Shown here one piece after another: positions 542 through 46,972 of a stretch of DNA of 64,000 nt (the first letter of the stretch is position 1; each line of letters starts with the position of its first letter). The stretch comes from Eledone cirrhosa (Eukaryota): the NCBI GenBank assembly GCA_964016885.1, contig OZ024741.1, positions 78,802,001-78,866,000 on the forward strand, given 5' to 3'. Below the pieces are notes generated by a model. The model was not told the DNA's origin. It did no database searches and saw only the letters and a list, made by a program, of their open reading frames with translations. The translations under genes and the position numbers were made by a program.

Positions 542-649
542 TGCCATAATCTTTTAAGTGGTTCGGGTCTTAAATCTGGCCTTGGTTAATAGCCATAACT
601 TTGTTCATGTTATTGACGTATATTTAAACAATGGTGGATAAAACTTCCA

Positions 650-1723
650 CAATGACAACGTCTTACAGGATACTTTAAAGCAGGGGTGTGCAACAGGCGG
701 TCCGCGGGCCACAATCCGGCCTGCCAGACTAATCAGAGTGGCTCGCGATGACCGTTTTTAAATGTTACCTTGTAGGCTTATTTATAATTTTTTTCGTAAC
801 CGTAATACAATATTTTGTTAGTTGACCTATACTAAAGGGCTTCACTGATATGGTTATGTGTGTTATAATTTCCCAGGTTATGGAAAGAAGTTGTGGTGAA
901 TCTTTGGAATAGTGCTTAATAAATATTAATGGCCCTAATAATTGTTCCAATATTCAAAAGTAGCTCGCCAATGGAATGTCTTGCACACCCCTGCTTTAAA
1001 GCAAGGGTTTCAAACTCTGATTGAAAAGGGCCATTACGTCCTGGGTGACAGGTATAACAAGCCAAAAGTGAAACGTGTGTGTTTGTATAGGGGTAGCGTG
1101 GTTCCCATCAGTTATAATGCTAATCTGCAATATGGCTGCAAATTATTATTATTTTTTTGTCTAAACGAATACGCATATGATGTTCAGTGGAATATATGAA
1201 TTAGTACAAAATGTAGAGGGATGGATTTTCCGTTTCAAATTTTCCTTTATTCTCCTGCGGGCCATAGGAAAGTAGTTTGCGAACCGCGTGATCGATCACG
1301 CGGTTCGCAAACTACTTTCCTATGGCCCGCAGGAGAATAAAGGAAAATTTGAAACGGAAAATCTGTCCCTCTACATTTTGTACTAATTCATTCCATTGGC
1401 GAGCTACTTTTGAATATTGGAACAATTATTAGGGCCATTAATATTTATTAAGCACTATTCCAAAGATTCACCACAACTTCTTTCCATAACATGGAACTGG
1501 GAAATTATAACACACATAACCATATCAGTGAAGCCCTTTAGTATAGGTCAACTAACAAAATATTGTATTACGGTTACGAAAAAAATTATAAATAAGCCTA
1601 CAAGGTAAAATTTAAAAACGGTTATCGCGAGCCACTCTGATTAGTCTGGCAGGCCGGATTGTGGCCCGCGGACCGCCTGTTGCACACCCCTGCTTTAAAG
1701 TATCCTGTAAGACGTTGTCATTG
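650..1723. repeat. Inverted duplication (arms 650-978 / 1389-1723) enclosing a 196-bp palindrome (1196-1391)
   Basis: Direct reverse-complement match; mirror ORFs 765-950(-) and 1417-1608(+); palindrome centre GTGATC|GATCAC at 1293/1294. Confidence 0.9.
681..993. mobile_element. hAT-superfamily MITE
   Basis: TIRs CAGGGGTGTGCAA / TTGCACACCCCTG; 8-bp TSD CTTTAAAG at 673-680 and 994-1001. Confidence 0.85.
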
Positions 1724-2461
1724 ATTCGCCTACCACAATGTTCGATTTGTCAAGCTATTTAAATGTATGTTATTACTCTAAGGCCATATCTTATCGAGTG
1801 CTTTGCTAACTCATCATTTCATATAAGTAGGCCGAATTTACTTGCAAACCACCAGAGATTCGATTTTACTGATTTCCAATTATATTATTCTCCTAGATTT
1901 AATAATTAACTAATTAATTTAATTAGACAATTCTGTTGATTGGTTAATTATTTGTGTTTGTTTTATAACATCTAGTTGAAAGCTTATCATGATAATTAGC
2001 GGAAATTAAAATATTTCCTTTCGCTAACATTTTGAATGACCCGCCTAAAACCGGGGGTTATTTCCCTTGCCGGAATTAACACGGGATAGCTATAGATACG
2101 ATAAGCCGCATCTAGCAGCAACATATAATTTATCACTCCGGTCCTAGGCAGAACGAAAAACCTGTTGATAAACTGAATCCTCCGTTCGATCACCAATACC
2201 ATGAGCTTGCCATTCACGTAAGTCTGATATTTGATTTCGGATTCAAAGAAACACTTTAAACGATTGATCGTTTGATTTGTCCAGGTGTACTGTTCTCAAC
2301 CTGATTAGTTCTATCGTTACTTTGGTATATATTGTGTGTTAGATTCGCCTACCACAATGTTCTATTTGTCAAGCTATTTAAACGTATGTTATTACTCTAA
2401 GGCCATATCTTATCGAGTGCTTTGCTAACTCATCATTTCATATAAGTAGGCCGAATTTACT

Positions 2462-2465
<4 letters not shown>
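1723..2465. repeat. Non-coding segment bounded by 124-bp direct repeats (1723-1846, 2342-2465)
   Basis: Near-identical GATTCGCCTACC...TTTACTTGCA copies; ends in (TA)n. Confidence 0.8.
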
Positions 2466-2516
<51 letters not shown>

Positions 2517-2697
2517 CCATAAGGTTGAGATGCAATTTGGGCAATATTGGGCTGCGCTTTCTAGCAACCAGCCCACTCGCCGTAAGCAACCAATCACATT
2601 CTCTTTGACTTGACCACTGCCACGTCACAGTTCTTAGCCATTTTGAATTCCTTTCTGGCGGAGATCACTTAAGAAAATTCTTTGTCCAAATGAGTTT

Positions 2698-2778
2698 GTT
2701 TCCTGATGAGTTCGAAGCTCAAGATGATATCCTTAATAGGATATTTCCGAAAGCGAACGGAACCCTAGGGTAGAAACG
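2698..2778 (+). ncRNA. Type I hammerhead ribozyme
   Basis: Stem I GTTTC/GAAAC; CTGATGA 2703-2709; stem II GTTCG/CGAAC; GAAA 2760-2763; palindromic stem III ACCCTAGGGT; GUA triplet. Confidence 0.7.
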
Positions 2779-2807
2779 TAATCCTGGTATGTGTATATGC
2801 ATTTTTC

Positions 2808-3069
2808 TTCTAACTTTAATTTTATACCTAATTGTGTATGGTTGACTTTATATTTAATCGATTTCCACGTGCTGTTGAAATGTTGGGTAAATATTCTATG
2901 GCGGTTGGTCGCGAAGAGATTGCTGTCGTTTATTTATCTACTATTTCTTCATAGGTGCCTTTTAATTTTATAGCCTGGTCTAATTGACTTTTTGTGTGGT
3001 TAATTATGCTAATTGGGAGAGGAAATGGTGTATATATATTATCAAATGATTCTATGGACATACTTTATA

Positions 3070-3070
<1 letters not shown>
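2808..3070 (-). repeat. Dispersed repeat, probable Penelope RT fragment; second copy at ~27518-27775
   Basis: Clear nucleotide similarity between the two loci, both bounded by (TA)n; PLE assignment is tentative. Confidence 0.45.
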
Positions 3071-3111
<41 letters not shown>

Positions 3112-3515
3112 TCTCGGATCTCGAATATTCGTCGTCAGCCCGCATATTAATCTTTCAAATTTTTCCAACCCCTCCGCTTATTAAATTTTGCTAATCTATC
3201 TGGTAGCGTTCCTGCAACAATTGATTTTCTTTATACATTAAAAAAACATTATACATGATAAAAAAAGTGCATTACTAGCAATCCCATAACATTATAAAGG
3301 AAATAGGATAGGTTGGGGTCTCAGTATGTAAATTAAACGACTATTTCTGGTTTTTAAAAAAATCAACAGAGACAACCTAGACAAATTACCGATTTTACAC
3401 CCAACCTGCCCCGGCTTATTCCACCCCTCCCACTTATTTCAACTCACCCGCTTATTCCATCCCCATATAATTTGGGTACCGAAAGTATACACACAGACAC
3501 ATATATACATATTTA

Positions 3516-3682
3516 TATATTATAAAGAGTCGGGACCCGACGGTTGGAACTAGCTGTTGAAACGGCAAGAACTCAGCCGTCGGTTCCCGACTCTTTATAA
3601 TATAACCATACTCTACTACCACAAGTATCGCGTACTCTGTTGAGTAATGGTTTAACCAGTTTCAAACTGCTTCCATCCTGAT
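3516..3682. mobile_element. Penelope terminal remnant with short foldback
   Basis: Hairpin TATAAAGAGTCGGGA...TCCCGACTCTTTATA; 3' half of a hammerhead (GAAA CGGC..GCCG TC); then CTCTACTACCACAAGTAT, similar to the terminus of the 29-39 kb element. Confidence 0.55.
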
Positions 3683-3951: not shown

Positions 3952-6660
3952 GAAAGCAGAAAATTGCTTATTGTAATCCAGTTTCTTGGACGGTTTCCAA
4001 CGTACGGTTAGGGGTAACTCGACAAGTTAGTAAGAATGTGGTTAGTAAATCACGTTCAATCTTGGAGTATAAAGAATAAAAGAGAAAACACAAGTAAGCA
4101 TTAAAAAAAGGATTTTATCCAGGCATTTACGACCGTTTTATTAGTAAGCGCAACCTTATATCGCTATACTGCAAATAGCAGCCACTCGATAATAACTGTT
4201 ATTCACCTCCAAATTTTCAAATAATGAATAAGTTACTTGTAAAACGTTCTTAATATATAAAAGATACATTTTTTAAAAATCGTATTTACTAGTATAGAGA
4301 GAGAGGAAGGGGGAGAATAATTAGGAAGTAGAGGGACAAACGGAAATGGAGGGAGGGGTAAAGATGGAAGGATTCCTCGATCAGTTTTGATTCGTAGACT
4401 TGATGTCAATTTACAGTGTAGGAAGTTAAAGAGAATTAGATTGTTTATAGTGGGAGAGAGAGAGAGAGGGGGGGGAGAGATAGAGAGATAAATATATATA
4501 TATAAGAAAGGGGGAAGAGAAAAAAGAACAAAAGAGAACAAAAAAAGGGAGAGAAGAAAAGAAGAAAACGAAAAAAGAGAAAAGGAATGAAGGAGGAGAG
4601 AGGGACATAAGTATTGGTTACTGTGGGTAATTAAAGGGGTTAGATTCAATAAGGGGGTAGAAAGTCTAAGTATATGCAGTTTGTCAGGTGGTAGTAGGAG
4701 GTTAAGGGTTCGATTTGCACTTGTAGTGCGAAAATCTTTCTTTAAGTCTATGGTTGCAATAAATTGATCTTTCGATTTTATTGTTGAGTAAACTTATTCT
4801 TCGAACTCAAAATGTGGAGCAGTTCAAACTCACATAACCGACAGATTCTCATACCGCTCCGATATGCAGGTGCGTTCGATAATTTCTTCCACTTCAGGGT
4901 GTATTGATGGTTACTTTCCCTCAGTTGCCAGGTCTTGTTCACAAGGGTAGTTACATAACGATGCTGGGAATGTTTCCTTGCGTAACGATGTGTATACCAA
5001 TGAGCTTTAAATGTATTCCCAGTCGCTCCGATGTAATACCATTTCTGGTTGTCTGATTCGACCGTGCATTAGTAAACCAGGTTAGACTGCATACATTCAT
5101 TATGCAATGGACAGGTTTCAGGTAGGTGGCAATTACAATTCTTGTCATGGGCAACTTTGGTATTATTGGTGGGCTGCGATGCCTGTACAAGTGTGTTACC
5201 TTTTGTTTGCCTTCTAGTGGGTAGTTGTGTATTAGATATTCTGTTGTGTTCGATGGTAATTGTATAGTTATTGTTATAAATTTGTGTTCCGGTGTTGTTA
5301 CGTATCTTTTTAGCGTTAAGCATCTTAATGTGTGCCTCTATGTTTGGTGCAGTGGAGTAGGATAGTCTGATAGATTTAGTGTTAAGGATTTTGCTGTATC
5401 TATGTGGATCTGGAAAGTGCTTATTTATTATTCTAAAGAAGGTAGAGGTAGGTTGATACCAATAGAGGTGTTAAATATGGGGTTATACCAAATATATTTT
5501 CTACTGCGTGACCTGTTTGATTTTGATGTATTTCTATTTTCAGTATAATTGGTAGTTCTATGCGTAAATGCGTGTGTGCGTGTATTTCTGGAGTTTGTGT
5601 TATGCCTATTCGTGTGTGCTTTGCAGAAGCTTTCATCTATATATTCTACTTTATCTTGGTGGCCTGCCTTATCTAGTGCAGTATTGTAGTACTCTGCGTG
5701 TTCCTCGAAGATTTGTCGGTTAGATGAGAGGCGCGAGATCCTAAGGGGTATGCTGGACTTAATTATGGAGAGAACGGACTTAATTATGAGAGAACGGACT
5801 TAATTATGGAGAGTGGGTGGTTCGAATTACAGTTGATGTATGCTAAGTTTTCATTATTCTTGTGAAAAGGTCTTATAAGTCCCGTATTTAGGTTAAGCGT
5901 CGCGTCTAGAAAGTTAACTATTTTAGTGCTATATTCATACGTTATGCCAAGGCCTAGTTTCCCGAGAGTCTTTCTAATATTCTTGCGCGGTCTTTCTATG
6001 CTCTGGTTATTTAGGTTCTTAACTAGAAGAAGGGCGTCGTCTCTGGAGATTCCACCGTGAACGTTGCTAAATTCCCTATGTAAACTATGGGCTATGTAAA
6101 TACCTACTAAATCCGTGGCCTGAGCCGAGTCATTAGCCCCCATCGTGATGTCAAAGTTATCTAATCTATCCTTACGTTCCCAATAGGCGTTTTCAAATTT
6201 AATTATTGTTTTCCTAGCAGCTAATATAATTTTTATCTCGTCGTCTGTCAGGTCAGAATTGGCTTTGGCGAATGCTAAGGCTTTATCCAAGGTATTGGGT
6301 GATATAGAGGAGTAATAGTCGTTAATGTCAAATTGTATAAACTTAGATACTTTTTTGTTAGCTATACTGTTAAACCATTTAATTGTTTCACTACTGTTAC
6401 CCCATAGTTTAATTACTAGTTTATTTTTCATTTGTGTTATTACTCTGTCTAATATATGTTTACTAATTTTCCCAATGTCTGATTTGGTCAGGCATATAAG
6501 TCTATCCTCTATTCCTAGATGTTTGACTATATTGTGTGCCTCGGTGTTGATGTTTATCAGTGCCGTCTCGTTAGTTTTTCTGTATTTTCTATGTAATTCC
6601 TTCCGTATGAAGCTATTGTATGTATAATATCCATCGTATACACATTTGAGGTTTTGTCCA
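3950..6660 (-). mobile_element. Degenerate 5'-truncated Penelope-like (Naiad-like) element, RT + GIY-YIG
   Basis: ORF 5784-6660 has TKSDIGKISK, FIQFDINDYYSSI, FDITMGANDSAQ, GGISRDD, VNFLD, NSNHP; downstream CNC..CPL..C..NLVY and YYIG motifs broken by stops; C/T-rich 3' UTR. Confidence 0.85.
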
Positions 6661-6665
6661 CTTTG

Positions 6666-6797
<132 letters not shown>

Positions 6798-26797: not shown

Positions 26798-27445
26798 TAT
26801 ATAAGTATGTATACGAACATACATATATGTATACAGACGTACAGTAGTATGTATATACATACATACATGCACACATATATATATGTACGTATGGGTTTAC
26901 CGAACATTTATTATTATGCTCGGTTTGTTTGTAAACAAACAGCCCGAATTTTTAGGCGTACAGTGTTCGGCAACCATCGTTGCCCTTTTTTTCAACACTG
27001 ACAAAGGAACGATGAACTAGTTTCTAGCTTATTAGCTGTCATCAGCACCGTATACCTTCCTGTCAGTCGATTGAACGTTTGAAAGTATATACTTTCCTTA
27101 TGCATATTAACGGCTGAGCAGCCTAATTTGCATATCGAGTGAGTTAGTCGGCTGAGCGTACCGAAAACGATAGAAACGATAGAAACGATAGAAACGATAG
27201 AAACGATAGAAACTAGAAACTAGTTCATCGTTCCTTTGTCAGTGTTGAACAAAAAGGCAACGATGGTTGCCGAACACTGTACGGCTAAAAATTCGGGCTG
27301 TTTGTTTACAAACAAACCGAGCATTATAAATAAATGTACGGTAAACCCATACGTACATATATATATATATATGTGTGCATGTATGTATGTACATACATAC
27401 TGTACGTCTGTATACATATATGTATGTACGTATACATACTTATAT
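26798..27445. repeat. Inverted repeat (~230-bp arms 26798-27027 / 27213-27445), non-autonomous Penelope-type structure
   Basis: Reverse-complement match; hammerhead overlapping the left arm end; (AAACGATAG)x5 at the right junction. Confidence 0.8.
27010..27050 (-). ncRNA. Minimal type I hammerhead ribozyme
   Basis: Minus strand: CGGTG CTGATGA C AGCT AATA AGCT A GAAA CTAG TT CATCG; palindromic stem III ACTAGT. Confidence 0.65.
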
Positions 27446-28333: not shown

Positions 28334-28998
28334 GACCAGAAAACTAACAGAAGAAATGACAGGTAGCTATGTGCAGACCCTTCTGAGGTTCCAAGAGTAA
28401 TGCACATACAATTTCCTGCAAGTGTTATGGTTTGGGGTGTTGTTAGCAATGAAGGAGATGTGATGCCTCCTCACTTTTTTCCACAAGGTCTCAGGATAAA
28501 TGCTGCTGCGTATATTGAGGTTCTGGAAAAAGTTGTTAAGCCTTGGATCAACAGTGTATCCAATGGAAAGCCTTATGTCTTTCAACAAGATTCTGCACAA
28601 GGCTCAAATGACACAAGAATGGATGGCCGACAATTTGCATGATCACATCACCCCCAACATTTGGCCTCCTAATTCTCCAGATATCAATCCACTGGACTAC
28701 TATGTATGAGGCATCGTTGAGAAAAAAGTCAATGAACACCCTCATAGCACCAAAGATTCTTTGAAAGCCGCCATAATTCGAGTCATGTCCGATATGAACA
28801 AAGACAACTTAATCCGAGCTTGCAAACGATTTCGACCCCGTTTAGAGGCAGTTATTGACGCTTATGGGGGTTCTATTGAATGCAATTATTAAATTGATAA
28901 TTTAGCTTTATTTTTATAAGAATACAGTTTTTTTCCTGTTATTATATAAGTGTTTTGTTTAAACCATAAATCTGTCCTCAAATACCGTCCGCACCCTG
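28334..28998 (+). mobile_element. 3' half of a DD37D (maT) Tc1/mariner transposon
   Basis: SVMVWGVVS, FQQDSA, WPPNSPDINPLDY; right TIR CTCAAATACCGTCCGCACCCTG+TA; highly similar to 45678-46917. Confidence 0.85.
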
Positions 28999-29036
28999 TA
29001 TATATATATATATATATATATATAGGAACCAGTAAG

Positions 29037-29130
29037 ACCCCGACAGCTGAGCTCAAGCCGTTTCGACGGCTAATTCTGGACTAAATGAACATTTATCCTG
29101 GTATTTAAATAGCCGATCTTCTCAAGGGGT
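29037..29130 (-). ncRNA. Hammerhead ribozyme, UUGAGAA core variant (copy A)
   Basis: ACCCC TTGAGAA GA(T)CGGCTA...TAGCCGTC GAAA CGGCT..AGCTG TC GGGGT. Confidence 0.75.
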
Positions 29131-30228
29131 AATTCCATATATGGTCAAAGTGATTGTCAAAAATCAGTAGTAATTCTGTGGTTGCAAATTAGTAGGGGAG
29201 ATGGTGGCTAAACCTGCCAGTAGGAGAAAGAGGGGAGGGGGTGGAGTAGACCCAATCAAGCGTTGGTAGTGCCAGCTACAGCTGGGCATGAGGTCAAAGA
29301 AGATACAGGGGAGGGGGAGGGGGAGGAAGTCGGAACGGTAGGTAGAACAATGGGGGGTAAAAATAGGAAAGAAAAAATACTGAGAGTGAAGAAAAGCAAA
29401 TAAGTGTAAAGAAAAAATTAAATTCTACGACCTAGGTGTCAGGCTATTGTAAGGCGAGAATAAAAAAAAGAAAGAAAGAAAGAAGTAAATAAATAAATAA
29501 AAAAATAAATAAGGAAATAAGTAAAAGAACTAGGTGGGACGAATTAGGCAAGGACCCTTTTAAGAGGTATAAGTACGTAAATGATACGGTGACTGGTCAA
29601 CAAAAGGGGCCAAAATACTAAAGAGACTACCACGAAATAAACAATAAAGGTTTCCATCCCGGGCCAGCAACGACCCAGTGCAGCAAAGTGAACTTGTACG
29701 ACATAATAATTCTGAGTCCCGGGAAAAATATATACTAATGCTAACTCTAAAAGATCTAAAACAAGCTACATGAAAGTTCGTACGAAATAAAGGTAGAATA
29801 CGGAGAAATAAGTTCAGAATCCACCCCGCCCAGAAGAAAAGCGAAGCAAGAAATACTGAAACGAAAAAATAAGGCATAAGTGCCACTAAGAAATATAGAG
29901 GGCACAGAGAATAGTGGGAGCGGTCGGAAAAGGGGGGCAAGTATCCGGGGTCTAAGCCAACTGCTATAAAGGGCGGAGTCCGCCAAATCTATCAAAGACT
30001 AGGGGAGGGGGGAGTGGGGGTACTAAGGCTACATGGGGCCAAAGGGCAGCCTCGGGTGGGCGAGAAAAGACGCCGACAAAGGAGAAGAGCTGGGGTAGAA
30101 GGACAAAGGAGAGAGGGGGGAAGGAAATAAAGGATGCGATAAAAGAATACAAAGAAGATCTTACGTCTTCCTTGGCAAGCAGGGGTTACCCATTGCAAAA
30201 TCGGCAACTGGGGTGTTATAGCCCTAGT

Positions 30229-32382
30229 CTACCCCCCCGGGTCATTATGGGGTTTGAGGGCGAGGTAAGTCCTACGCAATCTATGTTTACATGCAGTAAC
30301 CAGTTCATCTTTCTTGTTTAGGAGTTGGTCCGTCGAAAACAGCATTTGTAAAGTTTCCTCCGAGCATAAATTGCACGGACGGCGTCCTCCCGTGTAAGAA
30401 TTGGCTCTGGACAGTAATCTCCAAGTGAGATCATAGGTGATGTTGTTGTCCTTGAGGTCCCATATGTGGCCCGAAAGTGTAGTGGCGTGACGCCGGGCCG
30501 GGTTTCGGAAGGTATGTCTATGTTGGTATAGCCGGGTCTTGAAGTCACATGCGGTAAGTCCTATATAGGCTTTGTTGGAGGTATCCGTCCTCACGTTGCA
30601 CTGGTAGATCACATTACGGTCTCTGCATCTATTGTCGAGTGGGCAAATAGATCTATCCGGGCAGTTACACCTCCTGGTCGGTTCTCCACTGCTATTTAGG
30701 TTATTTCTGCCATCGGGGTTGAGTTTTTTGTTGTTAGAGGAGACGATGTTTTGTGCGAAGTTTGGTGTAGTGCTGTAAGAGAGTTTGATGGTATTTTTGT
30801 TAATTATGTTGTGGTAGCGGTGTTGTAATGGGAAGTGTTTTTCAATGAGCCTAAAGAATAGTTTCCCGATGGGAGTAGTCACCTCTGCGTTGTGGGGAGG
30901 ATTGAACCATGTTACATTGCGTGAGCGGCGGTGTCTCCTGCTGGTTCCGCTAATGGGATCTGGACAGTAGGATATTTCCTCCCGGAAACCACTCCACTTG
31001 AGGGCCTGGTTGTAATAAGGCGCATGTTCATCGAATATCCGCTCATTAGCTGACAAACGGGATATGCGAAGGGAGATGTTTTTGACCAGGTTGTTTGTGA
31101 TGTTCCTAGGATGGTTTGATCGGCGGTGGATGTAGTGCAGATTGTCATTAGGTTTCCTGTATGGGTAGTACAGGTCGTTTTCGAGGTCGAGGGTTACGTC
31201 CAGGAAGTTTACTCGGGTCAGGGACGTTTGTAGGGTTATTTTAAATCCCCAGTCGCGGAAGAATCTGATTAATTGTTTCCGGACCCGATCTGTACTACTG
31301 GGGTTGTACCCTTTAAGGGTAAGGAGCCCATCATCACGGTACAATCCACCACCGAATACAGGAAACATATCAGTGAGTTTGGCTATTAGGAATAATCCTA
31401 TAAGATCAGTGACCTCCGCCGAATCCGTGGCGCCCATGCTGACGTCGAAGGGTGAGTCGGGAGCTCTTTTTATCCATTTAGAGTCGTCAAAGAGTAAGAC
31501 TGTCTTCCTGGCGTGGAGGATGATTTTTCTTTCCTGGTCGGTGATGGGCACGAGTGTTTCGGCGAAGTCCAAGGCGGCAGTAAGTAGCGGTAAGGTGATT
31601 GAAGCATAGTAGCTCTCTATGTCGAACTGTATGAATTTAGTTTCTCGTTTATCCTCCATATTGCTGAACCAGGAGATTACTTCCTGGGTGTTGATCCATA
31701 GGCTAAGTCGGGTGTGTTGCTTGACTTTTGGTATCACGCGGTCTAGGATTTTTTTGCTGATTCTCCCTATGTCGGACTTCGTTGGGTTAATAAGCCTGAT
31801 GGAGGGTTTACGGTCAAAATCGGATTTATGGTCCTTCAGTGTGAAGTATGGTGTCCGTGGGTCTAGAGGTTCCGTGCGGTCGGCGACCCCGAGGCTGGAG
31901 GTGATTTGTTGTCCATCTCGATTTATGTCCTCGATGCAAGAGTGGTTGGCCTTTTTATAGGTGGAGTTTAGGCTGCTCTTGATCAGTGTGTGGTATCTGT
32001 CAGGGTTGACAAAGTATAGGTTCCCAGTTTTATCCGAATGCACCATGATGTCATTTGTGTTATCATACTCTGTTAAGTTGCTACGGAGTTTTTGTAGGAA
32101 TCGGTTGTGTCTGGGTTTAAATTTAATGTTCTTGACCAGTTGGAAGAGGTCATTCTCGAAGGGTGCGAGCAAGGGGTTCAGGGGCGGAGATTTGTAGGTA
32201 ATAAATCCGAATCTCTCCTTGGTGCCGAAGTCTTGGTTGTCGCAATATCTGTCATAGAAAAAAGTTCTCCATCTAAGTCTTTTCGCAAATAGATCAATTT
32301 TTTGCGTGAGCATCCGAAGGTAAAGTTTTTTCGGTGGGATTGGGATGTTCTTGGTAGAGAAGTCAATGTTGTGTTTTCGCAT
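30229..32382 (-). CDS. Intact Penelope-like polyprotein: RT + Zn-binding linker + GIY-YIG endonuclease (~717 aa from MRKHNID)
   Basis: FSTKNIP, SDKTGNLY, FDIESYYASI, MGATDSAE, LYRDDGL, VNFLDV; CNC..CPL..C; NVIY..KAYIGLT..FKTR; CNLC..E..NKK..CKH; no stops. Confidence 0.93.
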   Translation of the reverse strand: MRKHNIDFSTKNIPIPPKKLYLRMLTQKIDLFAKRLRWRTFFYDRYCDNQDFGTKERFGFITYKSPPLNPLLAPFENDLFQLVKNIKFKPRHNRFLQKLRSNLTEYDNTNDIMVHSDKTGNLYFVNPDRYHTLIKSSLNSTYKKANHSCIEDINRDGQQITSSLGVADRTEPLDPRTPYFTLKDHKSDFDRKPSIRLINPTKSDIGRISKKILDRVIPKVKQHTRLSLWINTQEVISWFSNMEDKRETKFIQFDIESYYASITLPLLTAALDFAETLVPITDQERKIILHARKTVLLFDDSKWIKRAPDSPFDVSMGATDSAEVTDLIGLFLIAKLTDMFPVFGGGLYRDDGLLTLKGYNPSSTDRVRKQLIRFFRDWGFKITLQTSLTRVNFLDVTLDLENDLYYPYRKPNDNLHYIHRRSNHPRNITNNLVKNISLRISRLSANERIFDEHAPYYNQALKWSGFREEISYCPDPISGTSRRHRRSRNVTWFNPPHNAEVTTPIGKLFFRLIEKHFPLQHRYHNIINKNTIKLSYSTTPNFAQNIVSSNNKKLNPDGRNNLNSSGEPTRRCNCPDRSICPLDNRCRDRNVIYQCNVRTDTSNKAYIGLTACDFKTRLYQHRHTFRNPARRHATTLSGHIWDLKDNNITYDLTWRLLSRANSYTGGRRPCNLCSEETLQMLFSTDQLLNKKDELVTACKHRLRRTYLALKPHNDPGG

Positions 32383-32567
32383 GGTGCGGGTGAAATGAAT
32401 TGAGCTTAGCGGAAAAGTCTGGATACGGCGTGGTAGGGTCGGAAAGTGCTCTACTACGGGAGTAGGAGCTAGATAACGAAGGAAATGTGGTAAGGAACCA
32501 GGTGGACCATAACGCACCAAAGTACTCAATACTTGAGGTAGTAGAGTGGGTAATAGGAACCAGTAAA

Positions 32568-32661
32568 ACCCCGACAGCTGAGCTCAAGCCGTTTCGACGG
32601 CTAATTCTGGACTAAATGAACATTTATCCTGGTATTTAAATAGCCGATCTTCTCAAGGGGT
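32568..32661 (-). ncRNA. Hammerhead ribozyme, UUGAGAA core variant (copy B)
   Basis: Same fold as 29037-29130, 3531 bp away. Confidence 0.75.
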
Positions 32662-33765
32662 AATTCCATATATGGTCAAAGTGATTGTCAAAAATCAGTA
32701 GTAATTCTGTGGTTGCAAATTAGTAGGGGAGATGGTGGCTAAACCTGCCAGTAGGAGAAAGAGGGGAGGGGGTGGAGTAGACCCAATCAAGCGTTGGTAG
32801 TGCCAGCTACAGCTGGGCATGAGGTCAAAGAAGATACAGGGGAGGGGGAGGGGGAGGGGGAGGAAGTCGGAACGGTAGGTAGAACAATGGGGGGTAAAAA
32901 TAGGAAAGAAAAAATACTGAGAGTGAAGAAAAGCAAATAAGTGTAAAGAAAAAATTAAATTCTACGACCTAGGTGTCAGGCTATTGTAAGGCGAGAATAA
33001 AATAAAGAAAGAAAGAAAGAAGTAAATAAATAAATAAAAAAATAAATAAGGAAATAAGTAAAAGAACTAGGTGGGACGAATTAGGCAAGGACCCTTTTAA
33101 GAGGTATAAGTACGTAAATGATACGGTGACTGGTCAACAAAAGGGGCCAAAATACTAAAGAGACTACCACGAAATAAACAATAAAGGTTTCCATCCCGGG
33201 CCAGCAACGACCCAGTGCAGCAAAGTGAACTTGTACGACATAATAATTCTGAGTCCCGGGAAAAATATATACTAATGCTAACTCTAAAAGATCTAAAACA
33301 AGCTACATGAAAGTTCGTACGAAATAAAGGTAGAATACGGAGAAATAAGTTCAGAATCCACCCCGCCCAGAAGAAAAGCGAAGCAAGAAATACTGAAACG
33401 AAAAAATAAGGCATAAGTGCCACTAAGAAATATAGAGGGCACAGAGAATAGTGGGAGCGGTCGGAAAAGGGGGGCAAGTATCCGGGGTCTAAGCCAACTG
33501 CTATAAAGGGCGGAGTCCGCCAAATCTATCAAAGACTAGGGGAGGGGGGAGTGGGGGTACTAAGGCTGCATGGGGCCAAAGGGCAGCCTCGGGTGGGCGA
33601 GAAAAGACGCCGACAAAGGAGAAGAGCTGGGGTAGAAGGACAAAGGAGAGAGGGGGGAAGGAAATAAAGGATGCGATAAAAGAATACAAAGAAGACCTTA
33701 CGTCTTCCTTGGCAAGCAGGGGTTACCCATTGCAAAATCGGCAACTGGGGTGTTATAGCCCTAGT

Positions 33766-35496
33766 CTACCCCCCCGGGTCATTATGGGGTTTGAGGGCGA
33801 GGTAAGTCCTACGCAATCTATGTTTACATGCAGTAACCAGTTCATCTTTCTTGTTTAGGAGTTGGTCCGTCGAAAACAGCATTTGTAAAGTTTCCTCCGA
33901 GCATAAATTGCACGGACGGCGTCCTCCCGTGTAAGAATTGGCTCTGGACAGTAATCTCCAAGTGAGATCATAGGTGATGTTGTTGTCCTTGAGGTCCCAT
34001 ATGTGGCCCGAAAGTGTAGTGGCGTGACGCCGGGCCGGGTTTCGGAAGGTATGTCTATGTTGGTATAGCCGGGTCTTGAAGTCACATGCGGTAAGTCCTA
34101 TATAGGCTTTGTTGGAGGTATCCGTCCTCACGTTGCACTGGTAGATCACATTACGGTCTCTGCATCTATTGTCGAGTGGGCAAATAGATCTATCCGGGCA
34201 GTTACACCTCCTGGTCGGTTCTCCACTGCTATTTAGGTTATTTCTGCCATCGGGGTTGAGTTTTTTGTTGTTAGAGGAGACGATGTTTTGTGCGAAGTTT
34301 GGTGTAGTGCTGTAAGAGAGTTTGATGGTATTTTTGTTAATTATGTTGTGGTAGCGGTGTTGTAATGGGAAGTGTTTTTCAATGAGCCTAAAGAATAGTT
34401 TCCCGATGGGAGTAGTCACCTCTGCGTTGTGGGGAGGATTGAACCATGTTACATTGCGTGAGCGGCGGTGTCTCCTGCTGGTTCCGCTAATGGGATCTGG
34501 ACAGTAGGATATTTCCTCCCGGAAACCACTCCACTTGAGGGCCTGGTTGTAATAAGGCGCATGTTCATCGAATATCCGCTCATTAGCTGACAAACGGGAT
34601 ATGCGGAGGGAGATGTTTTTGACCAGGTTGTTTGTGATGTTCCTAGGATGGTTTGATCGGCGGTGGATGTAGTGCAGATTGTCATTAGGTTTCCTGTATG
34701 GGTAGTACAGGTCGTTTTCGAGGTCGAGGGTTACGTCCAGGAAGTTTACTCGGGTCAGGGACGTTTGTAGGGTTATTTTAAATCCCCAGTCGCGGAAGAA
34801 TCTGATTAATTGTTTCCGGACCCGATCTGTACTACTGGGGTTGTACCCTTTAAGGGTAAGGAGCCCATCATCACGGTACAATCCACCACCGAATACAGGA
34901 AACATATCAGTGAGTTTGGCTATTAGGAATAATCCTATAAGATCAGTGACCTCCGCCGAATCCGTGGCGCCCATGCTGACGTCGAAGGGTGAGTCGGGAG
35001 CTCTTTTTATCCATTTAGAGTCGTCAAAGAGTAAGACTGTCTTCCTGGCGTGGAGGATGATTTTTCTTTCCTGGTCGGTGATGGGCACGAGTGTTTCGGC
35101 GAAGTCCAAGGCGGCAGTAAGTAGCGGTAAGGTGATTGAAGCATAGTAGCTCTCTATGTCGAACTGTATGAATTTAGTTTCTCGTTTATCCTCCATATTG
35201 CTGAACCAGGAGATTACTTCCTGGGTGTTGATCCATAGGCTAAGTCGGGTGTGTTGCTTGACTTTTGGTATCACGCGGTCTAGGATTTTTTTGCTGATTC
35301 TCCCTATGTCGGACTTCGTTGGGTTAATAAGCCTGATGGAGGGTTTACGGTCAAAATCGGATTTATGGTCCTTCAGTGTGAAGTATGGTGTCCGTGGGTC
35401 TAGAGGTTCCGTGCGGTCGGCGACCCCGAGGCTGGAGGTGATTTGTTGTCCATCTCGATTTATGTCCTCGATGCAAGAGTGGTTGGCCTTTTTATA
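33766..35496 (-). pseudogene. 5'-truncated copy B of the Penelope ORF
   Basis: Same protein from YKKANHSC onward; upstream METFIVYF comes from a fused UTR fragment. Confidence 0.9.
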
Positions 35497-35773
35497 AGAG
35501 ACTACCACGAAATAAACAATAAAGGTTTCCATCCCGGGCCAGCAACGACCCAGTGCAGCAAAGTGAACTTGTACGACATAATAATTCTGAGTCCCGGGAA
35601 AAATATATACTAATGCTAACTCTAAAAGATCTAAAACAAGCTACATGAAAGTTCGTACGAAATAAAGGTAGAATACGGAGAAATAAGTTCAGAATCCACC
35701 CCGCCCAGAAGAAAAGCGAAGCAAGAAATACTGAAACGAAAAAATAAGGCATAAGTGCCACTAAGAAACAGAC

Positions 35774-37550
35774 CAGATACCACACACTGATCAGGAGCAG
35801 CCTAAACTCCACCTATAAAAAGGCCAACCACTCTTGCATCGAGGACATAAATCGAGATGGACAACAAATCACCTCCAGCCTCGGGGTCGCCGACCGCACG
35901 GAACCTCTAGACCCACGGACACCATACTTCACACTGAAGGACCATAAATCCGATTTTGACCGTAAACCCTCCATCAGGCTTATTAACCCAACGAAGTCCG
36001 ACATAGGGAGAATCAGCAAAAAAATCCTAGACCGCGTGATACCAAAAGTCAAGCAACACACCCGACTTAGCCTATGGATCAACACCCAGGAAGTAATCTC
36101 CTGGTTCAGCAATATGGAGGATAAACGAGAAACTAAATTCATACAGTTCGACATAGAGAGCTACTATGCTTCAATCACCTTACCGCTACTTACTGCCGCC
36201 TTGGACTTCGCCGAAACACTCGTGCCCATCACCGACCAGGAAAGAAAAATCATCCTCCACGCCAGGAAGACAGTCTTACTCTTTGACGACTCTAAATGGA
36301 TAAAAAGAGCTCCCGACTCACCCTTCGACGTCAGCATGGGCGCCACGGATTCGGCGGAGGTCACTGATCTTATAGGATTATTCCTAATAGCCAAACTCAC
36401 TGATATGTTTCCTGTATTCGGTGGTGGATTGTACCGTGATGATGGGCTCCTTACCCTTAAAGGGTACAACCCCAGTAGTACAGATCGGGTCCGGAAACAA
36501 TTAATCAGATTCTTCCGCGACTGGGGATTTAAAATAACCCTACAAACGTCCCTGACCCGAGTAAACTTCCTGGACGTAACCCTCGACCTCGAAAACGACC
36601 TGTACTACCCATACAGGAAACCTAATGACAATCTGCACTACATCCACCGCCGATCAAACCATCCTAGGAACATCACAAACAACCTGGTCAAAAACATCTC
36701 CCTCCGCATATCCCGTTTGTCAGCTAATGAGCGGATATTCGATGAACATGCGCCTTATTACAACCAGGCCCTCAAGTGGAGTGGTTTCCGGGAGGAAATA
36801 TCCTACTGTCCAGATCCCATTAGCGGAACCAGCAGGAGACACCGCCGCTCACGCAATGTAACATGGTTCAATCCTCCCCACAACGCAGAGGTGACTACTC
36901 CCATCGGGAAACTATTCTTTAGGCTCATTGAAAAACACTTCCCATTACAACACCGCTACCACAACATAATTAACAAAAATACCATCAAACTCTCTTACAG
37001 CACTACACCAAACTTCGCACAAAACATCGTCTCCTCTAACAACAAAAAACTCAACCCCGATGGCAGAAATAACCTAAATAGCAGTGGAGAACCGACCAGG
37101 AGGTGTAACTGCCCGGATAGATCTATTTGCCCACTCGACAATAGATGCAGAGACCGTAATGTGATCTACCAGTGCAACGTGAGGACGGATACCTCCAACA
37201 AAGCCTATATAGGACTTACCGCATGTGACTTCAAGACCCGGCTATACCAACATAGACATACCTTCCGAAACCCGGCCCGGCGTCACGCCACTACACTTTC
37301 GGGCCACATATGGGACCTCAAGGACAACAACATCACCTATGATCTCACTTGGAGATTACTGTCCAGAGCCAATTCTTACACGGGAGGACGCCGTCCGTGC
37401 AATTTATGCTCGGAGGAAACTTTACAAATGCTGTTTTCGACGGACCAACTCCTAAACAAGAAAGATGAACTGGTTACTGCATGTAAACATAGATTGCGTA
37501 GGACTTACCTCGCCCTCAAACCCCATAATGACCCGGGGGGGGTAGACTAG
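35774..37550 (+). pseudogene. 5'-truncated inverted copy C of the Penelope ORF
   Basis: Same RT/GIY-YIG protein; one extra G in the terminal G-run extends it to GGVD*. Confidence 0.9.
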
Positions 37551-38643
37551 GGCTATAACACCCCAGTTGCCGATTTTGCAATGGGTAACCCCTGCTTGCC
37601 AAGGAAGACGTAAGATCTTCTTTGTATTCTTTTATCGCATCCTTTATTTCCTTCCCCCCTCTCTCCTTTGTCCTTCTACCCCAGCTCTTCTCCTTTGTCG
37701 GCGTCTTTTCTCGCCCACCCGAGGCTGCCCTTTGGCCCCATGTAGCCTTAGTACCCCCACTCCCCCCTCCCCTAGTCTTTGATAGATTTGGCGGACTCCG
37801 CCCTTTATAGCAGTTGGCTTAGACCCCGGATACTTGCCCCCCTTTTCCGACCGCTCCCACTATTCTCTGTGCCCTCTATATTTCTTAGTGGCACTTATGC
37901 CTTATTTTTTCGTTTCAGTATTTCTTGCTTCGCTTTTCTTCTGGGCGGGGTGGATTCTGAACTTATTTCTCCGTATTCTACCTTTATTTCGTACGAACTT
38001 TCATGTAGCTTGTTTTAGATCTTTTAGAGTTAGCATTAGTATATATTTTTCCCGGGACTCAGAATTATTATGTCGTACAAGTTCACTTTGCTGCACTGGG
38101 TCGTTGCTGGCCCGGGATGGAAACCTTTATTGTTTATTTCGTGGTAGTCTCTTTAGTATTTTGGCCCCTTTTGTTGACCAGTCACCGTATCATTTACGTA
38201 CTTATACCTCTTAAAAGGGTCCTTGCCTAATTCGTCCCACCTAGTTCTTTTACTTATTTCCTTATTTATTTTTTTATTTATTTATTTACTTCTTTCTTTC
38301 TTTCTTTATTTTATTCTCGCCTAACAATAGCCTGACACCTAGGTCGTAGAATTTAATTTTTTCTTTACACTTATTTGCTTTTCTTCACTCTCAGTATTTT
38401 TTCTTTCCTATTTTTACCCCCCATTGTTCTACCTACCGTTCCGACTTCCTCCCCCTCCCCCTCCCCTGTATCTTCTTTGACCTCATGCCCAGCTGTAGCT
38501 GGCACTACCAACGCTTGATTGGGTCTACTCCACCCCCTCCCCTCTTTCTCCTACTGGCAGGTTTAGCCACCATCTCCCCTACTAATTTGCAACCACAGAA
38601 TTACTACTGATTTTTGACAATCACTTTGACCATATATGGAATT

Positions 38644-38737
38644 ACCCCTTGAGAAGATCGGCTATTTAAATACCAGGATAAATGTTCATTTAGTCCAGAA
38701 TTAGCCGTCGAAACGGCTTGAGCTCAGCTGTCGGGGT
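38644..38737 (+). ncRNA. Hammerhead ribozyme, UUGAGAA core variant (copy C)
   Basis: Stem I 38644-48/38733-37; TTGAGAA 38649-55; GAAA 38710-13; GUC 38730-32. Confidence 0.75.
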
Positions 38738-38828
38738 CTTACTGGTTCCTATTACCCACTCTACTACCTCAAGTATTGAGTACTTTGGTGCGTTATGGTC
38801 CACCTGGTTCCTTACCACATTTCCTTCG

Positions 38829-38879
<51 letters not shown>

Positions 38880-40631: not shown

Positions 40632-40712
40632 CCTATTACCCACTCTACTACCCTAAGTATTGAGTACTCTGGTGCGTTATGGTCCATCTGGTTCCTTACC
40701 ACACCTCCTTCA
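40632..40712 (+). mobile_element. Short terminal fragment related to the 29-39 kb Penelope element
   Basis: CCTATTACCCACTCTACTACCCTAAGTATTGAGTACTCTGGTGCGTTATGGTCCATCTGGTTCCTTACCAC matches 38748-38818; lies between (TA)n tracts. Confidence 0.75.
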
Positions 40713-40715
40713 TTG

Positions 40716-45680: not shown

Positions 45681-46911
45681 GTTGCGGACGATATTTGAGG
45701 ACACATGTATTTTTAGTCATTATTTAATTAGACTCATTTTTATTCAACTTCAATTTCAGAAAATAACAATGAAAATAACTATGCTTACTAATGAAATGAA
45801 AAGGCATGTTGTGATTTAGAAATTTCTCGTTTTCTGAAAGTTACAAGATCTTTTGTCCACAAGATTCGGTGTGAGTTAGAGAAAGAAGATGGAAGCGTAT
45901 CAAAACGATGGACCTATATCAAAACGTAAAACACATTTCAAATGCTCTGATTCTATCAGGACACCTGAATTTATTCAGGAAGTTAAGCAAAACATTGATG
46001 ACAATCTAGGAAAATCAATGAGGTCAATTGCAAAAATTTTGGTGTGTCAGAAAAAACAATCAGAAATGTTGTGCATGAAGACATCAGCTACGTGATGATG
46101 AGAGGTCAATTCATGTCAGAAAAAAACAAAAGAAAAGCATTTAATCAGATCCACAAGACTTTTAAACAAACTTAAAAATCCACCAGAAGATGGTGTGATT
46201 TGGTTTTCCTCAGATGAGAAAAACATTGGCCAGGACCAGAAAACTAACAGAAGAAATGACAGATGGCTATGTGCAGACCCTTCTGAGGTTCCAAGAGTAA
46301 TGCACACAAGATTTCCTGCAAGTGTCATGGTTTTAGGTGTTGTTAGCAATGAAGGACATGTGATGCCTCCTCACTTTTTTCCACAAGGCCTTAGGGTGAA
46401 TCCTGCTGCGTATATTGAGGTTCTGGAAAAAGTTGTTAAGCCTTGAATCAACAGTGTATGCAATGGAAGGCCTTATGTCTTTCAACAAGACTCTGCACCA
46501 TCACACAAGGCTCAAATGACACAATAATGGATGGCCGACAATTTGCATGATCACATCACCCCCAACATTTGGCCTCCTAATTCTCCAGATCTCAATCCAC
46601 TGGACTACTATGTAAGGAACACCATTGAGAAAAATGTCAATGAAGACCCCCATAGTACCAAAGATTCTTTGAAAGCCGCCATAATTCGAGTCATGTCCGA
46701 TATGAACAAGGACCACTTAATCCGAGCTTGCAAACGATTTCGACCCCGTTTAGAGGCAGTTATTGATGTTTATGGCGGTTTTATTGAATAAAATTATTAA
46801 ATTGCTAATTTAGCTTTATGTTTATGTTATTTTTATAAGAATACAGTTTTTTTCTGTTATTATATAAGCGTTTTTTTTTTAACCATAAATCTGTACTCAA
46901 ATACCGCCCGC

Positions 46912-46917
<6 letters not shown>
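45678..46917 (+). mobile_element. Full-span, inactivated DD37D (maT) Tc1/mariner transposon
   Basis: TIRs CAGGTTGCGGACGATATTTGAG / CTCAAATACCGCCCGCACCCT in TA context; WFSSDEK, FQQDSAPSH, SPDLNPLDY with 37 residues between 2nd and 3rd D. Confidence 0.9.

Positions 46918-46972
<55 letters not shown>

Follow-up and report, generated by a model that had tools for sequence, protein, structure and literature searches.

A two-armed Penelope-like insertion in Eledone cirrhosa and a candidate re-ligated RNA circle as its template

A Penelope-like insertion of 9.8 kb occupies positions 29025-38832 of a 64,000-nt stretch of Eledone cirrhosa contig OZ024741.1 (hereafter the window) and consists of two opposed arms, one of which is formed by a tandem of the copies A and B. 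From the sequences of this insertion and its relatives we lean, with some reserve, towards the view that the element is an autonomous animal retrotransposon whose replication passes through a protein-coding RNA circle of 3.5 kb, cut by a ribozyme and re-ligated, that this circle is copied by a two-headed reverse transcriptase (RT)-endonuclease from two fixed sites, one to either side of a DNA break, and that cut, tailed and re-joined states of the RNA have left fossils in the genome that can be counted. The mechanism of tandem and inverted insertion by Penelope-like elements (PLEs) and the role of their hammerheads are described as unresolved in the available text of PMC8557442 and PMC11167929. 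The present family offers exact coordinates for the cut site, the two start sites and the unit length, along with more than ten thousand fresh events; three tests based on sequence favour a circular template and discriminate among published models. If true, the mechanism would join PLEs, retrozymes and viroid-like RNA processing, account for the regeneration of tandem sources each generation and provide an RT capable of inserting from both break ends with a single RNA.

Architecture and identity of the element

The features of the insertion are collected in Table 1. A sequence-only reading of the region had described a 1.8-mer, and this description is confirmed: copy B runs into copy A without a scar in the assembly sequence and covers monomer nucleotides 614-3531, which brings the tandem to 1.83 units. 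The cut-to-cut span proposed there (32572 to 29042, with ~190 nt of 5' UTR, an intact ORF and ~1.19 kb of 3' UTR) is likewise correct, the 3531-nt monomer being composed of a 190-nt 5' UTR, a 717-codon ORF and a 1187-nt 3' UTR. Both outer ends extend past the predicted cut as had been claimed, by 17 nt in A and 100 nt in C, each with a TAT that overlaps the (TA)n target. The boundary placed at 35496 has to be moved to 38832, as the insertion continues through piece D, which likely arose by a template jump, then a short filler and the inverted arm C. To the right of the insertion lies a (TG)n stretch.

Table 1 Features of the insertion (window positions; + and - refer to the forward and reverse strand)
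Feature	Position	Strand	Remarks
Left (TA)n target	28999..29024	none	last TAT (29022-29024) common to element +18..+20
Terminal type-I hammerhead, copy A	29025..29136	-	MFE fold; predicted cut 29042/29041
Parts of copy A hammerhead	stem I 5' strand 29136-29126; core UUGAGAA 29125-29119; GAAA 29064-29061; GUC 29044-29042	-	
Copy A, cut-to-cut monomer	29042..32572	-	3531 nt
Intact ORF in copy A	30229..32382	-	717 aa
Internal hammerhead, B-to-A junction	32556..32667	-	predicted cut 32573/32572
Copy B, 5'-truncated upstream unit	32573..35496	-	monomer nt 614-3531 plus 6-nt insertion
Piece D, 3' UTR	35496..35768	-	273 bp; monomer 2680-2952; 1-nt overlap with B
Filler at inversion junction	35769..35773	none	5 nt
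Copy C, inverted arm	35774..38732	+	monomer 574-3531; ORF 5'-truncated; one extra G at ORF end
Hammerhead of arm C	38638..38749	+	predicted cut 38732/38733
Long end (tail) of arm C	38733..38832	+	+1..+100 of 5' UTR; last TAT common to target
Right (TA)n target	38830..38875	none	

Copies A and B differ by five substitutions and the 6-nt insertion in 2.9 kb, and A and C by four substitutions and a gap. That A and B are not identical speaks against a false assembly duplication of the tandem. The hammerhead at the B-to-A junction carries one private change, at +6 within the stem I bulge, and the short end (+17) of copy A retains the whole predicted ribozyme. With two complete predicted ribozymes around an intact ORF, copy A could release a monomer; a sequence search of the assembly found no descendant of this locus. 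Four DNA sequencing runs gave no record spanning the locus; in an independent RAD run, loose TA ends were present at both start sites (2756 and 912 reads).

By its motifs the element is placed as a young Hydra-type Penelope-like retrotransposon. The structure predicted for the 717-aa protein (pLDDT 91) has a telomerase-like fold and its four best Foldseek matches are all telomerase RTs (E values 3.5e-8 to 9.7e-8, TM scores 0.30-0.33), while a Pfam search of the ORF and a PDB profile and sequence search gave no match. RT motifs are found at 117 (DKT, in place of DKG) and 348 (YRDD), followed by a CxCX5C linker (CNCPDRSIC, 572), CxxC (CNLC, 670) and CxH (CKH, 698). The motifs of a C-terminal GIY-YIG-type domain (VIY at 591 and YIG at 606) were assigned by eye and by regular expression in this protein, on which Pfam is silent; the homologue P0001 passes the Pfam GIY-YIG model. 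A motif scan of the 717 residues detected no GxKF/Y and a regular-expression search no CX2-5CxxC. Homology searches identified 2074 homologues among 7996 scored candidates. A Naiad identity was considered first and set aside, as the nuclease motifs sit C-terminally.

The DKT, CxCX5C, CxxC and CxH motifs are those that Craig et al. (2021), in the available text of PMC8557442, assign to the Hydra clade, with which the element also shares a single ORF encoding an RT plus a putative GIY-YIG-type domain at the C terminus, insertion into (TA)n, a hammerhead, a partial tandem (pLTR) with an inverted 5'-truncated copy, and a tail at one end; the single ORF, tandem, inverted copy and one-sided tail are hallmarks of PLEs. 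By the descriptions and motifs given in that text, there are also differences. The monomer measures 3531 nt, whereas the listed families are mostly shorter than 3 kb; RWR at position 37 is a conservative variant of the Hydra-clade RWK; the tail is 80 nt instead of 30-40; and the hammerhead has a U3-A8 core and a long branched stem II, in contrast to the canonical cores in four rows of the supplement. A U3-A8 core in a PLE is reported in the accessible part of PMC4209133.

The predicted hammerhead and a probable footprint of cutting

In its MFE structure the repeat junction adopts the three-way junction of a type-I hammerhead, with the core UUGAGAA/GAAA/GUC, although the fold reaches a z-score of only -0.34, and searches of Rfam at the gathering and E-value thresholds returned no hammerhead match. 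In older copies, variants in stem III preserve pairing.

A footprint of cutting was sought in the ends of arms genome-wide. With matched patterns, 269 arms stop at +1, the predicted cut, compared to 29 at the control position +7, and each of the 30 inspected rows at +1 was a true stop. A second control at -7 gave 189 stops, near the number at +1, but is confounded by stem repeats, which appear to have templated about 79 of its first 100 listed rows. A looser search, from which 20 of 50 rows were set aside as ambiguous, placed 29 of 60 arm ends at +1 and two to eight at each of +2 to +8, as judged by eye. Among the first 50 of 256 listed palindromic mini-insertions, also scored by eye, about 17 show filler where two arms meet that both stop at the cut (a further base could be included in two of them) and about 11 are blunt CCCC-GGGG joints, which are ambiguous.

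Multi-nucleotide filler lies exactly in the scissile bond in nine rows from eight loci and in one further locus with AC plus A29, compared to none of 13 at a control bond; extra G residues in a G-run, which make up 79 of 98 rows with inserts at the cut site, were set aside as uninformative. At the nine cut-site loci the filler is A-rich in seven and AC plus A29 in one. In six of the seven two-armed filler loci the end of the opposite arm lies between +6 and +1, and the seventh (L182) has the same TAAAA on both arms. The stops and the filler at the predicted cut indicate that the ribozyme likely cuts in vivo and that jumps over the cut leave scars. We infer that RNA is cut in vivo, is primed at the same two sites and yields run-off or scarred jumps. 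Cut linear RNA cannot give a seamless continuation, and seamless crossings are abundant: one 24-mer spanning the cut has 10,833 exact matches in the 3.0-Gb genome. Many of these matches sit in small two-armed insertions.

Paired ends and shared alleles

Family samples were assembled from best hits and are not random. Three queries supplied, around their best hits, 74 regions with lengths up to 10 kb; together with 16 shorter loci and the window itself, these were analysed as 82 regions. Among 72 insertions with both ends, 61 pair a short end (+14 to +26, nearly all +20) with a long end (+85 to +103, nearly all +100); one is long/long, one short/short, and nine were left unclassed by the aligner. 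Of the 61 paired insertions, 47 were retrieved with queries that are neutral as to the ends and 14 with one ending at +100; another 15 mini-insertions, picked solely by their inner junction, show this pairing in all 15 cases. Arms exceeding one unit start from either end (19 short, 18 long). The genome-wide check of endpoints and of insertions longer than one unit that the sequence-only reading had proposed yielded, in these best-hit samples, two fixed ends and many arms of more than one unit. Arrays reach up to 4.5 units, and near-identical junctions are present in 39 others among the best 40 of 1515 candidates; the seamless junction is therefore not special to this locus.

Both start sites are TAT and overlap the target. 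The monomer carries 70 TAT, five of them in its first 200 nt, and the only ones used are at +18-20 and +98-100, one per end; target overlap alone does not select the start site. The earlier proposal of internal priming by TA microhomology is accordingly upheld as to internal priming and fails as to TA being the sole determinant of the site. The fold of the 5' UTR (z -0.24, not significant) contains no structure that accounts for the two start sites. The further claim that a cut linear monomer cannot template the outer ends is contradicted by the position of these ends, which lie at its 5' end, and by mini-insertions of ~120 bp, whose arms stop at +1. We infer that a single template was primed twice, once at either side of a break. 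Published work already describes one-sided tails and a pair of internal start sites; the strict pairing of one long with one short end was not found in the passages of the literature searched, and the supplements of PMC11167929 (Fig. S2, genomic ends) and the figure supplements of PMC8557442 may show it.

Units of one insertion share alleles. At this locus A, B and C together carry 1215T, 1577T and 3071T, a trio present in one of 30 insertions. The 24-mer containing 1215T occurs exactly three times in 3.0 Gb, in A, B and C; that containing 1577T is also found at 10 other places, and 3071T lies within a low-complexity tract that was masked in later analyses. An additional allele, 3122T, is present in A and B and absent from C, which counts against a single template. 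Of 40 informative insertions across the family, 24 have tandem units with at least one private allele in common, and polymorphic sites shared between insertions gave 7902 homogeneous and 83 mixed within-insertion calls. On the opposing side, an upstream unit has its own downstream partner as strict nearest neighbour in only 16 of 38 tandems, with 10 ties and 12 closer to another locus, although its distance to that partner is below the median in all 38. The arms of one insertion (L036) differ at lineage marker 445, and a search for source-daughter pairs gave 445T in this same insertion as the single candidate marker.

Sharing is similar near the cut (-200 to +100; nine shared and 17 single alleles) and in the body (35 and 45; Fisher p=0.50). 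Private alleles are shared at -11, -28, -47, -64, +37 and +94, where the tail contributes two shared alleles only. Were the template a linear, end-redundant transcript, one would expect a zone near the cut in which the upstream copies and the downstream ones form distinct lineages; its absence here speaks against this template.

A candidate circular template and its alternatives

We think it fairly probable that the three copies go back to one template sequence, an RNA circle of 3531 nt formed by re-ligation of a hammerhead-cut monomer, which two RTs copied from two fixed starts (+17/20 and +97/100). Cut templates leave stops or scars, yet all three crossings of the cut at this locus are seamless and one haplotype recurs over 1.83 units, so that a re-ligated circle would be the simplest template. 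The sequence-only reading had proposed copying of more than one unit from a circle or an uncut multimer; continuity of the template across the cut is supported, and the sharing of private alleles favours a circle over an ordinary uncut multimer. In the proposed sequence of events, a tandem source would be transcribed through both ribozymes, and the transcript would be cut after GUC, as predicted by the fold and suggested by the genomic run-off footprint. A host ligase, likely of RtcB type, would then seal the cut ends. The element protein, which probably acts as a dimer, would nick both strands of (TA)n, and each target 3' end would anneal to UAU at one of the two sites, consistent with the observed paired ends and TAT overlap. 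Both RTs would cross the cut seamlessly, one proceeding for 1.83 rounds (A and B) before jumping to D and the other for 0.84 round (C), and the two cDNA ends would finally be joined head-to-head and repaired.

Single haplotypes and seamless crossings would also be expected from an uncut homogeneous RNA multimer, made from a one-unit DNA circle or by RNA-to-RNA amplification, with cutting as a side reaction. We regard this as unlikely, if worth taking seriously. The DNA circle would arise by recombination between repeats and undergo rolling transcription, and oligomers from circles are proposed in the available text of PMC6765202. Moreover, Naiad PLEs, which lack canonical hammerheads, also build tandems of this kind (PMC8557442, in the part available). 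Against the circle itself, ribozyme-dead RNA of PAc, a Poseidon element of the green anole, inserts as well in vitro (accessible text of PMC11167929); because of these two cases a circle may not be obligatory across PLEs. However, a multimer of this kind requires an extra DNA circle or an RNA replicase, neither of which was observed, and it leaves unexplained why the short end retains precisely a complete ribozyme and why cut ends are joined by filler, identical on both arms in L182. Somewhat more doubtful is a linear read-through RNA with terminal redundancy, on which the RT switches between units by homology, as in LTR-like strand transfer, or makes precise end-to-end jumps on a cut monomer. 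RT jumps are indeed frequent here (piece D, L160 and L178) and a review, in its available part, reports that PLE transcription starts within the upstream pLTR, but a redundant zone should give separate upstream and downstream lineages, in conflict with the private alleles shared at -11, +37 and +94. Jumps over the cut, for their part, are scarred and have a run-off partner arm, whereas the crossings at this locus are scarless.

That a mixed tandem was read through and later homogenised by gene conversion or unequal crossover, or was duplicated in assembly, appears improbable. Long arrays do show period-2 allele patterns (L065 and L067), which fit later duplication at the DNA level; the full units of L058 share alleles that are missing upstream, and of the sites covered by three units nine have an allele in two of the three. 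Sharing by all three is more frequent (23 sites, with 50 single), A, B and C retain their own differences beside the shared alleles, and unequal crossover alone cannot produce a truncated copy of 0.83 unit. The inverted arm, finally, could stem from self-priming or fold-back of one cDNA in place of a second priming, as proposed for rotifer PLEs in the available text of PMC3846280. One fold-back route geometrically fits 48 of the 61 paired insertions and palindromic junctions are common; nevertheless, 13 of the 61, this locus included, are incompatible with either arm folding back on the other, and the ends are strictly one long and one short, which makes fold-back highly improbable.

The idea of a circle is not new, and neither is internal initiation at two sites, proposed for uncut RNA (PMC11167929). 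Cervera and de la Pena (2014; PMC4209133) invoked cutting, ligation and more-than-unit reverse transcription for tandems; in the available text their model is a proposal that carries no in vivo or genomic test, and the allele sharing and run-off counts given here are such tests. The closest experimental parallel described is PAc (Frangieh et al. 2024), for which the accessible part of PMC11167929 reports two internal RT starts that delimit the tail, downstream of the ribozyme cut, cutting and extension of both target strands and a predicted dimer, all of which recur in the model proposed here. For PAc that text describes an uncut RNA template, no target homology, no difference between strands in start site and no reads ending at the cut. 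In contrast, the present element overlaps its target by TAT, uses strictly one of the two sites at each end, has genomic run-off stops at the cut and repeats a single haplotype over more than one unit. Type-I hammerhead tandems are shared with animal non-LTR retrozymes, which in the available text of PMC7229834 and bioRxiv 10.64898/2026.07.22.740005 form circles by northern blot and RNase R and are thought to be mobilised by PLEs; ligation of their ends by RtcB in vitro is reported in PMC7229834. According to the same two sources, the retrozyme unit is small (170-400 nt) and non-coding, whereas that of the present element spans 3.5 kb, contains an intact ORF and is autonomous by its predicted protein.

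Mini-insertions and arrays of the main family

Genome-wide, the main Penelope-like element (PLE) family has left many ~180-bp two-armed mini-insertions, whose arms end about 27–45 nt past the predicted hammerhead cut and which are likely the commonest product of the family. The arm stops coincide with the stem II/III hairpins. At locus L182 (G000:C7:18516347) the cut is followed on both arms by identical filler, TAAAA, which would be expected if the RNA template already contained it, or if one arm copied the other.

In four-unit arrays (L065+L045+L046+L066 and L067+L062+L063) alleles alternate every second unit (843T; 1316G, 3221A; monomer numbering), which would reflect either a dimer template or DNA duplication of a two-unit block. 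A 55-bp ORF piece (monomer 1714–1771) is repeated head-to-tail in ~65 copies at L063-L064 (G000:C1 ~91.489–91.493 Mb), where an array of 4.5 units has its inversion junction; the run may have arisen by RT slipping many times over, or it may be a new satellite.

Related elements

The stem I 3' strands differ in the four listed sister-family copies while the GUC-GGGG cut context is kept, and these families are often stacked within the same TA runs. Two (TA)n runs flank the sister-family tail piece in the window. The decayed second PLE shows 39% identity to the 717-aa protein of the main element over 304 aligned positions.

Repeats related to the main PLE and other repeats in the window
Feature	Position	Details
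Tail-only piece, sister family	40634-40714	81 bp, 91% identical, about +17..+97 past the cut
Sister-family copies (fetched loci)	L050:9527-9707; L123:2946-3107; L129:3722-3902; L134:735-848	85-90% identical
Decayed second PLE	5784-6761	same type as main element
Long near-perfect palindromes, two	650-1723; 26911-27329	arms 96-99%
Repeat ending in (TA)n, two copies	28334-29024; 46234-46943	91% identical
LINE copies, several	~14.1-25.8 kb; 48.7-52 kb; 53.7-58.8 kb; 43.2-44.3 kb	AP-endonuclease + RVT_1 domains

Other repeats in the window

The main PLE is inserted in the TA run that terminates the (TA)n-ended repeat, which we take to resemble a Tc1/mariner end; a Pfam search with this repeat gave no match. 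The two palindromes are possibly foldback DNA transposons or MITEs. Some LINE copies have (AAT)n ends, and the copy at 43–44 kb contains a PHD finger.
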